In this document: piece after piece, positions 32,474 through 63,967 of the stretch | Layout: each line of letters begins with the position of its first letter | How positions within the stretch are numbered: the first letter of the stretch is position 1 | Assembly (NCBI GenBank): GCA_002633005.1 | Contig: NMRA01000169.1 | Span: 599,387 to 663,386 of the forward strand | Direction: 5' to 3' | DNA length: 64,000 nucleotides | Origin: Phoronis australis | Lineage: Eukaryota > Animalia > Phoronida | Position numbers and translations under genes: made by a program | The notes under the pieces: generated by a model | The model's input: only the letters and a program-made list of their open reading frames with translations | Databases searched by the model: none | What the model was told of the DNA's origin: nothing

Positions 32474-32688
32474 CTAATACAACACACTGCCATTGGTGGA
32501 CAGTTGACGCTGAACAGTATAGTTGTCAAATACTAAGTTTTTATCAACAGACGACGTCTTCTTTGTGCGATTACTAGCAGCAACGATGATGATGATCAGA
32601 AGAACAAGGCTGAGAACTGCCATCCAAATGATGAGTAATAACATTACGTTGTTATTGACGATGGCATCGATGCCGTCTCCCGTTTGAG
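32474..32688 (-). CDS. Gene A TM and cytoplasmic-tail exon
   Basis: catttcag|; hydrophobic ~24-aa helix followed by a basic stop-transfer segment (RTKK); TAG. Confidence 0.88.
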
Positions 32689-35600
32689 CTGAAATGAGAA
32701 TTGAGATGGGCATGAGAAAGGTTAGCGTAAAGAGAGATAGAGAAATGGATTTTCATACTGAGGTATAATGCAAGCTTTGGAAGCAGCTGTAGCTCCACCT
32801 TCAGTCACAAAAACGAACCTTATTTAGATCGCTTAGAGTTATGAAATTTGTCTGAAATCTTTCCTTTAACCAAACTAGAGGTGATTTCTGGGTTTTGGCA
32901 CAGCCGGTGTCATTCTATGTGCAGACCATTTCGATAGGATAACAAACTGTCAGTTATTTGGAAACCTAGAAATCACTTCTCATCTTAAGGTGGAAACTGA
33001 GACCGATTTTATAACGGGAATGGATCTAAAGTTTAAGTTCAATTCTTGGATGGAATGCGGGGTTATGACCACTTATAACTTTACGTTCAATTTGGGGGAT
33101 TGTTGTAGTAGAGTTGATGAATGATCACAGGCATAATGTAATTAAAACTCGCATAACAAATGCCAGTAGTCCAGTTCTTCTAGTTTGTGCATTCAGCCCT
33201 TCAGACAAGTCGGCTTTCGCAATACTCAGACGAAATCTCTTGGTTTGGTTGAATCCGACATGTGCGAGTTTCACTAAACTAGGAACAAATTTACTGTTTC
33301 ATGTTATATCGATAACTAGATACACATTGATCCCATTTACTGCCAACAGAGGGCACATCACAGGACAGAATAATCAGTGTGTATTTCCGTTGAAGCTCAA
33401 AAATCTGCAACCTTCAAAAATTTTTTTTTGTGAAAGTCACGCGACTCTTTGCGTCCGGGTTTGCAATCGCAACTAGACTCAAGAATTCTTTGTACGTAAT
33501 GGTGCCCTATAGAAAAACTATCCAACTTGTCTGGGTTATCTATATTGTCAAGGGTGTTTGAACTGAGGAAGTCAAAACGGTGTAAACTTGAGCATGAAAA
33601 ACGATATCATTGTTTTTGACGACTGAGGGGAGAGCGAGCAACAGTTTTAGGCACTAAGTATAACAGTCAAAACGAATGCAATGAAGCACTTCAGCTGAAC
33701 ATATTAATAAAGAGATTTATTAGTTACAGACTATACATGAATTACGTGGATTTCGGGAATAACCAAAAGCAGGTATTTTAAAATGTCAATTTTTCAACTT
33801 GGGGGGGTGGTTGTTAAACTGAATGTGACATTAACCCATACTAAATCTGCATACATACCCTGGTTGCCTGTGCTAACAGTGTATTCAGCCACACAGGTGT
33901 AACTTCCAGGTGTGTTCACACATGTGCCAGATTTACAAGGATTCGTCTTTGCTGCACACTCGTCAAGGTCTATAGGTAACATGGAATGAAAAAGTTCAGT
34001 GCCATGCTAAGTCCAATCAAATCAGGTCATATTTCAGTGCCATGCTGAGTACCAATCAAATCAGGACATATTTCAGTGCTATGCTGAGACCAGTCAAATC
34101 AACGCATATTTCAGTGGTAGGCTTTCAGTTTTTCCAAACAACACTACTGTGCAAATTCTATATTAACAGGAACTGACTTCAGTAATGTGAAATACATGTC
34201 GGAACATCCCTGTAATGAAGTTTAAACAGACATATGTTTAGCTAATGAAAAAAGTCATCAAAGGTTTCATATCATCCCAATGTCTAAGTTTTCAAAAAAT
34301 AACAGAAAATCGTCAAAACTTCACAACAGAAAGTCACAAAATCATACATGTCAACCATTTTTTTGTTCTAACCATAGCAATTTTTGTAAAAAACCAAAGT
34401 ACTCTTAAAACTGAGTCAAAATGTGGTCAAGAGTCAAAATCCATTGCATTGTATCTACTATATCTACTAGAGGCTCTTATATCTGACTAGTAACTATGAG
34501 TGTTGTTATACCCCTGGGAAACTCCTTTGGCCCTGTCGAGTAAGGCTCGCGATATGAGATTATTTTGACAAAAAAAATTGCCAGTAAAAGCCAAAGCAAA
34601 GATTTGATAACTTTAGTTCGAACATCGGCAAAAATGCGTATTAATTACCGAAAATACCTAGCATTTTGGTGCTACGACGTAGCACTACAGAAACAGCAAA
34701 AATACGTGGCAAATCCATAATTCCCATATTGGTTGACATGTATGCTATACAAAATAGTTTTCTTCATTTCTCCACATTTTTTTATGAAACTCAGACTAGA
34801 TGAATTGGACAAGATTTTATAAATTTCTCTATGCAAAGCCAACTCAGCCAGGTTTTCAACAATGGTATGCAAGTCAAGTTAATAAGTACATCAATTAATT
34901 ATGCGATAATATTCACAAGTGAACCTTGAGGGGTTCCACGGCACCCACCACTCTCTGGCCACTCAAGTAAAGTTGGACTTGTTCTATTACTGTCGATCAA
35001 CGGCTTACAAGAATTGACTTGGAATCCTGCCAAAAAAGCAAGCACCTCCTGCTTGGAGGTTGAAAGGGTTGAACATTGAGTCATTCCTCGATTGATATCC
35101 AACGTAGATCAAGCACAGTGATTTTGTTGTGCATAATTCATGCAGACAAGGGAGTGATTCAACTTCAACACTAAGGTTTAGTCGCTACAGTTTCGAGCCT
35201 TTCAATATTTACCTTTGCAAGCGAGTTTGTTGCTTTGCAGAGTAAACCCTGGTTTACAGGTGCAGACGAATGAACCGGCGGTATTGTTGCAGTAGTGCTG
35301 GCAGTAACCATTGAATTCGCTACATTCGTTTATGTCTGTAGAAAGATGAAATACCAGATACTATGTAGAACCATAACCACCCAAGTTATAGCAATAATAA
35401 TAACAAATAATAATAATTATTATTATCATTATTATAATAAATTATGTACTAACAATATTACCACTACAGATCCTGCTACCAGTTATAATAATGATAGATA
35501 AATCAATAACAATATTATTTAATAATTGTAAAAATATCAATAATAACAATAAATATAATGATCTAAAGATAATGATAATGTTCATGATCATGCTAATAAT

Positions 35601-63700: not shown

Positions 63701-63967
63701 TTGATACACATATAAACTTCAACTATAGGCACACCATAAATCGCTTTTGCATTACAATGCAGCTTCTCATTCATTCCCTAGCATACATTCACATTTGTTC
63801 AATGCTTGACTGTCTGCCAGTGTTGGTCAGGATTTGAACCTGGGTCAGTGAAGAGCTCAAACTACTGAGCTACACTGTCTTCTCGTGAAGAACAACTCAC
63901 CACTGAAAACCCCATCAGTAACAACCAGTAGTAACACAGCAATGGAAGGTAGCGTCTTGGAAAACAT
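48327..63967 (-). CDS. Gene B: type I transmembrane collagen-cbEGF protein (628 aa) with an extra N-terminal domain and Thr-rich stalk; paralogue of gene A
   Basis: complement join 63901-63967, 62708-62952, 60228-60456, 57575-57726, 54188-54341 (or the duplicate 55959-56112), 53090-53326, 52092-52214, 51008-51130, 49897-50013, 48327-48766 = 1887 nt, all GT-AG and phase-consistent. [50 protein letters not shown](GXY)50-EGF-EGF-truncated [31 protein letters not shown].. Confidence 0.87.
49897..50013 (-). CDS. Gene B truncated (4-Cys) cbEGF exon
   Basis: [39 protein letters not shown]; gtttcag| and |gtaatt. Confidence 0.9.
51008..51130 (-). CDS. Gene B cbEGF exon 2
   Basis: [41 protein letters not shown]; 123 nt. 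Confidence 0.92.
51845..52085. repeat. Degenerate (tcaata/atatca)n low-complexity tract in an intron
   Basis: Repeated atatcaac/tgtcaata units. Confidence 0.7.
52092..52214 (-). CDS. Gene B cbEGF exon 1
   Basis: [41 protein letters not shown]; 123 nt. Confidence 0.92.
52426..52510. mobile_element. Palindromic MITE-like element, copy 4 (partial)
   Basis: cccacattttgagcaccagttttctccactgaataacgggc..ttctcaaaatgtggg. Confidence 0.65.
52748..52908. repeat. Imperfect 16-17-bp minisatellite, ~9 copies
   Basis: acacaag(g)ggtctag(g/t)(g/a). Confidence 0.85.
53090..53326 (-). CDS. Gene B collagen exon 3 (237 nt)
   Basis: [22 protein letters not shown]; ttcacag| and |gtgagt. Confidence 0.92.
54188..54341 (-). 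CDS. Gene B collagen exon 2 (154 nt)
   Basis: [24 protein letters not shown]; catgtag| and |gtaagc. Confidence 0.88.
55959..56112 (-). CDS. Gene B collagen exon 2, duplicate copy (likely alternate haplotype)
   Basis: Near-identical to 54188-54341 with intact splice sites; lies in the duplicated block after the N. Confidence 0.55.
57575..57726 (-). CDS. Gene B Thr-rich stalk and collagen exon 1
   Basis: ctctttatag| (phase 1) and |gtaaga; [50 protein letters not shown]. Confidence 0.88.
58388..58602. repeat. 32-bp minisatellite, ~6.7 copies
   Basis: acaagaccagac(c/t)agccccagtataccacagt. Confidence 0.9.
60228..60456 (-). CDS. Gene B N-terminal domain exon 2
   Basis: tattgcag| and |gtaagt; [28 protein letters not shown]. 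Confidence 0.82.
62708..62952 (-). CDS. Gene B N-terminal domain exon 1
   Basis: cttttcag| and |gtaagt; [44 protein letters not shown]. Confidence 0.82.
63328..63561. repeat. 77-bp tandem repeat, 3 copies
   Basis: agtggcccctacagcatcagacatgacacgcaaatgcacggactcttgaggggcccagg.. at 63328, 63405 and 63482. Confidence 0.9.
63901..63967 (-). CDS. Gene B signal-peptide exon
   Basis: tttttag|[25 protein letters not shown]; |gtgagt phase 1. Confidence 0.8.

Follow-up and report, generated by a model that had tools for sequence, protein, structure and literature searches.

Two neighboring genes of Phoronis australis are predicted to encode type I membrane collagens with bases of epidermal growth factor-like domains

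Several well-known membrane proteins, namely, the MACITs (XIII, XXIII, XXV, and Caenorhabditis elegans COL-99), collagen XVII, the class A scavenger receptors, ectodysplasin, and gliomedin, are single-pass proteins of type II topology that carry a collagen helix outside the cell, and human membrane collagens trimerize from the N-terminal juxtamembrane region. Here we analyze a 64,000-nucleotide (nt) stretch of the Phoronis australis genome (contig NMRA01000169.1, positions 599,387 to 663,386; termed the window), whose minus strand holds two genes, A and B. Their predicted products are also single-pass proteins with an extracellular collagen helix, but their polarity is the opposite. We assign a probability of roughly 0.5 to the reading that A and B are type I membrane collagens that probably assemble into homotrimers and probably attach cells to the extracellular matrix. 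An earlier sequence-only reading of this DNA had already set the pair against the type II polarity of the well-known membrane collagens. A 2025 UniProt-wide survey agrees with that polarity, since in its available part all human proteins with at least nine Gly-X-Y triplets are secreted or type II, except for the nuclear WDR33 (PMC13138384).

In the available text of PMC4678570, the defining features of MACITs are a type II topology, helices with interruptions, and a C-terminal Cys motif; no MACITs were found in Lophotrochozoa. The A and B proteins depart from this definition in three respects. (i) They have a signal-like N-terminal stretch and a C-terminal transmembrane (TM) helix. (ii) Their collagen domains each consist of one run, with 51 triplets in A and 50 in B. 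(iii) Their C termini lie past the TM helix, and no furin-type R-X-X-R site matches in either protein, so that neither the Cys motif nor the juxtamembrane furin site has a counterpart. A juxtamembrane coiled coil, another difference from MACITs, is not evident in A or B.

Collagen is also found together with epidermal growth factor-like (EGF) domains in known proteins. CCBE1 combines collagen with calcium-binding EGFs (cbEGFs) but is secreted, and its EGFs precede the collagen, which is opposite to the order collagen, EGF, TM in A and B. In the brachiopod Lingula, the available text of PMC4595640 counts 17 genes with EGF plus collagen, collagen proteins with EGF_CA number 22 in Lingula and 7 in the pearl oyster, and 4 collagen-EGF proteins belong to the Lingula shell proteome. 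These proteins are described as shell-matrix collagens, and the word "transmembrane" does not occur in the main text. A and B likewise have collagen and EGF/EGF_CA in one chain and share with them both the pairing and the partner families (EGF_CA, FXa_inhibition, and cEGF). The available part of PMC13425148 lists in Table S6 eight Lingula collagen-EGF shell proteins of 68 to 250 kDa with plain EGF (PF00008). All eight are marked YES for "Transmembrane" and one of them, XP_013413902.1, is also marked YES for "Signal peptide"; the columns look swapped (fibrillin-2 is YES/NO and a G protein-coupled receptor NO/NO), and XP_013413902.1 is YES/YES either way. The supplement of the same article, as far as available, contains the shield protein TRINITY_DN74111 of Sternaspis chinensis (439 residues; best hit, SCUBE3), which has Collagen, EGF_CA, FXa_inhibition, and cEGF as do A and B and is intermediate between them in length. 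This entry is a table row giving neither domain order nor TM status, so that the likeness concerns the families only.

A layout resembling that of gene B is also found in bacteria. The streptococcal proteins Scl1 and Scl2 consist of head, rod, and anchor and, in the available text of PMC8968730, rely little on hydroxyproline. Their N-terminal head, uninterrupted rod, and C-terminal surface anchor correspond to the "lollipop" predicted for gene B, but they are anchored to the cell wall, have no EGFs, and use the head to nucleate the trimer, whereas gene A is headless. The resemblance is one of analogy and not of homology. A literature search, with most subscription journals beyond its scope, yielded no protein with the layout signal peptide-collagen-EGF-TM, and the available part of PMC12549020 contains nothing on it. 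The suggestion of an undescribed system made by the sequence-only reading agrees with this result as far as the layout is concerned but does not hold for the collagen-EGF pairing, which is published for Lingula, pearl oyster, and Sternaspis in the portions of those sources available. Already known are the component domains and their pairing; new are the tail-anchored polarity and the orphan head.

Gene A comprises eight coding exons that run from 40593 to 32474 on the minus strand and encode 368 residues; every modeled intron is bounded by GT and AG, and the frame is open. Stranded RNA reads cross all seven coding introns, with 24 to 54 reads each in runs X1 and X2 (two allele-split joints were pooled) and none in run X3. 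Upstream lies a 5' untranslated region (UTR) exon (41911..42037, minus strand; upper end approximate, with five molecules ending at 42037), whose joint 41911>40594 is supported by 47 and 33 reads. The leader contains an in-frame stop and no in-frame ATG ahead of the start codon, which leaves no room for a cytoplasmic extension ahead of the hydrophobic N terminus of the protein. The coding exons, all on the minus strand, are as follows: the predicted signal-peptide exon (40539..40593; residues 1 to 18; gene model and RNA joints); three collagen exons supported by model, Pfam, and RNA (39849..39937, with 8 triplets; 38998..39151, 154 nt; and 37479..37715, 237 nt); EGF1, with six cysteines and a degenerate calcium site (35720..35842; Pfam FXa_inhibition, 6.9e-9; RNA joints); EGF2, a full cbEGF (35213..35335; EGF_CA and RNA joints); a half cbEGF with Cys1 to Cys4 only, followed by a linker (33859..33969; EGF_CA model positions 2 to 29 of 43); and the last exon (32474..32688), which encodes a juxtamembrane segment, a TM helix at approximately residues 313 to 336, a tail of about 30 residues, and the stop. 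The joint between the half EGF and the TM exon, 33859>32688, is covered by 26 and 33 reads. Of the 40 variant rows listed, 14 are coding, and 12 of these are silent, compared with 23% expected (p ~1e-6); judged from the variants listed, gene A is under purifying selection.

Gene B has 10 coding exons from 63967 to 48327 on the minus strand, encoding 628 residues, again with GT..AG at all introns and an open frame. Its predicted signal-peptide exon (63901..63967; residues 1 to 22) is joined to the next exon by 1 and 6 reads (63901>62952). There follow, on the same strand, the first (62708..62952) and second (60228..60456) halves of a head domain, linked by RNA joints 62708>60456 and 60228>57726; a Thr/Pro-rich linker with collagen exon 1 of 8 triplets (57575..57726; model, Pfam, RNA); collagen exon 2, copy 1, of 154 nt (55959..56112; joint from 57575, 6 and 2 reads); collagen exon 3 of 237 nt (53090..53326; joint 53090>52214, 5, 3, and 1 reads); EGF1 (52092..52214) and EGF2, a full cbEGF (51008..51130), both from Pfam and RNA; a half cbEGF (Cys1 to Cys4) plus linker (49897..50013; Pfam, alignment, and RNA); and the last coding exon (48327..48766; joint 49897>48766, 4 and 1 reads) with a TM helix at approximately residues 493 to 517, a Pro/Ser/Val-rich tail of about 110 residues, and the stop. 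Stranded depth and an AATAAA at 45944 delimit a probable 3' UTR (45900..48326, minus strand, lower end approximate). RNA supports at least seven of the nine coding introns, with 1 to 8 reads per run, including those from collagen to EGF1 and from half EGF to TM. An acceptor-like AG precedes the ATG, and any exon farther upstream falls outside the window. In both genes the start codon, at 40593 in A and 63967 in B, lies no more than one base from an intron acceptor, which is shown by RNA for A only. Between the genes, positions 42340 to 43671 received no RNA reads, which indicates that A and B are separate transcripts; a single fused gene was rejected on account of this gap and the stop codon and UTR between them.

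Gene B also contains a tandem duplicate of 1.8 kb (53972..57519, no strand assigned), whose arms, 53972-55756 and 55758-57519, are 96.7% alike and are joined at position 55757, the only N of the window; each arm stops exactly where its twin stops. A second copy of collagen exon 2 is therefore present at 54341-54188, differing from the first at 3 of 154 bases. The duplicate is most likely, from these sequence features, an assembly artifact in which two haplotypes were placed end to end. We rejected the possibility that the two exon copies serve as alternatives or in tandem: including both breaks the frame, and the seam carries the N.

The collagen runs are unbroken, with 51 triplets in A (residues 25 to 177) and 50 in B (residues 208 to 357), whereas in 2,000 shuffles of each protein the longest Gly-X-Y run was 7 and 6, respectively. 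Proline occupies 9 of 51 Y positions in A and 5 of 50 in B, and Gln and K-G-D/E motifs are numerous in both rods. The rod of A is near-neutral (10 basic and 12 acidic residues; net negative), and that of B is rich in lysine (15 of 50 Y positions; net +4). At 55960-56112 (minus strand), the rod of B also shows, across its frame, one RGD and seven KGD triplets; inside a triple helix such motifs are normally not integrin sites. Pfam was scanned exon by exon over 16 exon products, where Collagen was found on all six collagen exons (four above the cutoff) and EGF families on all six EGF exons; nothing but Collagen and EGF families exceeded the cutoff. The EGF exons matched EGF_CA, FXa_inhibition, and cEGF. 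EGF2 (33.4 bits in A, 35.4 in B) and the half EGF3 (34.5 and 30.0) pass EGF_CA with the calcium-ligand consensus, and EGF1 falls under its cutoff (PF07645, 27 bits) in both genes (17.4 and 26.6). The third EGF ends after the fourth cysteine in both proteins, keeping the calcium ligands and dropping the last disulfide loop. The best structure matches of a profile of the six EGFs were LRP2, fibrillin, and LDLR. A short, Cys-free linker rich in Ser, Thr, and Gln separates the half EGF from the TM helix in both proteins.

In both proteins the N-terminal hydrophobic stretch is weak and the C-terminal one strong (19-residue hydropathy peaks of 1.8 and 3.4 in A and of 2.1 and 3.5 in B), the latter with basic residues directly behind it. 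These features make a type I architecture, with an extracellular part of collagen and EGFs and an intracellular tail, very probable, and it is the best reading of the sequence. In this respect the sequence-only reading is supported, and it has proved sound as to the two minus-strand genes, their rods of about 50 triplets, and the single predicted C-terminal TM helix with its tail; RNA links the exons across 7/7 coding introns of A and at least 7/9 of B. Its two cbEGFs plus a truncated EGF hold for EGF2 and EGF3 but not for EGF1, as judged by EGF_CA. The single architecture it had drawn for both genes has to be abandoned, since B adds two coding exons (62952-62708 and 60456-60228), spliced in RNA, and thus a head of 159 residues plus a Thr-rich linker.

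An alignment of the two proteins gives 46% over 325 residues. Intron phases agree at all seven shared positions, and exons of 154, 237, 123, and 123 nt are common to both. Identical positions amount to 21/41, 23/41, and 13/27 in the three EGFs but to only 21 of 100 non-glycine positions in collagen aligned in exon register; in the TM exons, 21 positions are identical, among them one Trp in the helix and, immediately ahead of the helix, one Asp and one Asn. To judge from these sequences, A and B are old paralogs whose rod length was retained. For gene A, RNA depth reaches approximately 30 to 60x in X1 and X2, and X3 has none; for gene B, it is approximately 3 to 6x in X1 and X2, and X3 still shows a low depth. 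This difference between runs makes obligate A/B heterotrimers unlikely, and the large excess of A over B in X1 and X2, together with the presence of B without A in X3, points to homotrimers.

The head of gene B (residues 23 to 181; 159 residues) is free of cysteine, of mixed composition, and followed by the Thr/Pro-rich linker. Its two exons lie between phase 1 junctions, where gene A splices its signal exon straight to collagen, and the head thus has the properties of a shuffled module. That gene A might conceal a head exon was rejected, as tblastn found no copy and the direct splice is seen in RNA; tblastn also found no second head copy elsewhere in the 64-kb window. Other searches used each half on its own rather than the intact piece. 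Pfam (E values up to 10) and PHROGs were blank for both halves, and a PDB search returned nothing for the first half and six chance-level terpene-synthase rows for the second. Six HMMER matches of a head exon were rejected as repeat-inflated or unrelated bacterial repeat proteins, and a word-based homolog search, an insensitive tool, confirmed 0 of 37 candidates. In the Atlas, the first half gave leads below threshold, the best at 0.87 to 0.88 (phage hypothetical proteins) and a PHR domain at 0.79. AlphaFold2 models of the single halves reached pLDDT values of 47 and 46, too low for a fold search, and a crude propensity scan assigned 43 strand and 26 helix positions among the 159. The fold may be a beta-sandwich resembling PHR or DUF4082, which is an impression and not a result. 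The head is a candidate for a new ligand-binding module.

If A and B are type I membrane collagens that tether cells to matrix, the following mechanism can be proposed. (i) The signal peptide would be cleaved and the C-terminal helix would stop transfer, so that the collagen and EGFs would face outward and the tail would remain within the cell. (ii) Three chains, with their C ends held in the endoplasmic reticulum membrane, would be brought into register, and the triple helix would then fold from the C toward the N end, as it usually does in secreted collagens. No trimer domain or coiled coil is evident in A, nor between rod and membrane in B; a propeptide is not evident either, so that registration probably depends on the membrane anchor. 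A complex prediction for three TM segments scored 0.13, which speaks neither for nor against such a trimer. A 1997 EMBO J study reportedly replaced the procollagen C-propeptide with a TM domain. (iii) Calcium bound at EGF2 and the half EGF3 may stiffen the base, as in the calcium-stiffened cbEGF pairs of fibrillin. (iv) The rod of approximately 43 nm (0.286 nm per residue) would span the cell coat. (v) In gene A the rod itself would be the binding surface, and in gene B it would hold three copies of the orphan head at its tip for avid binding. (vi) Exon shuffling in the intron that follows the signal-peptide exon may have added or removed the head, a phase 1-1 module of two exons. A matrix role is suggested by analogy with the collagen-EGF proteins of the Lingula shell and Sternaspis shield, and a structural tether fits gene A better than a polyanion receptor does, since A is headless and its rod near-neutral.

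A number of observations weigh against this reading. (i) The topology is predicted from hydropathy and charge. (ii) The RNA reads are short, and no single read runs from signal peptide to TM exon. (iii) Two of the nine joints of gene B, 55959>53326 and 51008>50013, were not among the matches listed, although both have GT..AG ends and the same phase as in gene A. (iv) The stability of the helices is uncertain given the few Y-position prolines. (v) The two tails are of unequal length, and neither contains an NPxY or YxxPhi motif that would point to the cytoskeleton. (vi) The Lingula shell proteins, being longer and having plain EGF, may not be relatives of A and B. (vii) Outside-database searches with single exons of A and B, which are insensitive, produced no homolog. 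An alignment search with the TM exon, likewise insensitive, scored 0 of 7,990; scans of metagenome contigs gave 249 and 460 pattern matches, none of which was confirmed; and the weakness of the word-based tool is illustrated by its mere 17 candidates even for a conserved exon of the neighboring RasGAP gene.

Among the alternatives, we regard as unlikely that A and B are pattern-recognition or endocytic receptors, i.e., counterparts of the class A scavenger receptors in reverse polarity, in which the head of B would bind microbes or glycans and the rod complement-like partners. In class A scavenger receptors, collectins, ficolins, and C1q, the recognition domain lies C-terminal to the collagen, and the recognition proteins MARCO, the collectins, and C1q each carry a head on a stalk of collagen. 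These last three are listed in the available part of PMC13138384. The Lys-rich rod of B with its net charge of +4, its tail of 110 residues, and the PHR domain, which at a low 0.79 is the only named Atlas lead for the first head half, would suit such a function. However, gene A, the more abundant in X1 and X2, is headless with a net negative rod, and the lysines of B reside mostly in K-G-D/E motifs (nine), which usually stabilize the helix. Moreover, no SRCR, C-type lectin, fibrinogen, or C1q domain was detected in the exon products of either gene (the head was scanned as halves), and the variants listed for A show purifying selection rather than diversification.

It is similarly improbable that the proteins are membrane-tethered precursors, whose TM helix is needed for trimer assembly alone, the ectodomain being shed afterward at the unstructured linker below the half EGF and built into cuticle, tube, or shell. 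Shedding is reported for MACITs in the available text of PMC4678570, collagen-EGF proteins occur in the mineralized matrices of Lingula and Sternaspis, and the Cys-free Ser/Thr/Gln-rich linker before the TM helix in both proteins would offer a site; yet this linker region, like the rest of A and B, has no R-X-X-R motif, and the 110-residue tail of B exceeds what an assembly anchor needs. There is even less to recommend the view that A and B are juxtacrine ligands whose EGFs, or the head of B, activate receptors on adjoining cells: the type I EGF-plus-TM layout and the variation in expression between samples are compatible with it, but the EGFs resemble the structural cbEGFs of LRP2, fibrillin, and LDLR and sit under a 43-nm rod, beside their own cell's membrane. 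An artifact, in which exons of different genes were wrongly joined or the genes are pseudogenes, is very hard to sustain despite the one real assembly artifact of the region and the two unlisted joints of B, as A has 7/7 coding joints with 24 to 54 reads each and mostly silent variation, and B mirrors A exon for exon.

The window is intron-rich, with a GC content of 35 to 46% per 2 kb. Tail to tail with gene A lies a SynGAP/DAB2IP-type RasGAP gene (11913-28737, plus strand), of which 12 segments match Owenia P0019 at 37 to 81%; for one exon, the best match was Owenia fusiformis (73%), the sole named invertebrate among 11 matches from the 17 candidates, which places the DNA, though loosely, with lophotrochozoan-like invertebrates. 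Sternaspis, like this best match of the gene next to A, is an annelid. A short dispersed repeat has four copies in the window (52426-52502, 30327-30413, 20159-20254, and 3387-3483), and the copy at 52.4 kb attracts very many loose-ended RNA reads on both strands, as expected of a genome-wide mobile element. Intronic repeats at 48840-49011, 58950-59150, and 40660-40820 likewise attract, on both strands, reads that stem from other places, and the first two also show inverted joints. Minisatellite-like arrays occur in introns and in the 3' UTR of B (47363-47517, 58383-58602, 63328-63561, 33995-34123, and 52749-52909), with units of 22 nt at 47.4 kb and 77 nt at 63.4 kb. Between A and B, a decayed segment (44313-45300, minus strand) has translations that by eye resemble the end of a non-LTR retroelement frame.

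We propose, tentatively and with doubt prevailing, that A and B represent a so far undescribed family of type I membrane collagens of invertebrates, in which trimers are assembled by the anchor without a dedicated trimer domain and the head is a swappable phase 1-1 module. If this is true, the family would be an animal counterpart of the Scl lollipop and, in a lineage without MACITs, a mirror image of these proteins, and the head of B would be a new extracellular binding domain. A natural, expressed collagen that is predicted to be tail-anchored would mean that animals also use the polarity opposite to that of human membrane collagens. Gene A, with its 368 residues, would offer a compact system for asking whether a membrane anchor alone registers and nucleates a triple helix. 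A and B may also be the cell-surface end of the collagen-EGF matrices found in the brachiopod shell and the annelid shield.

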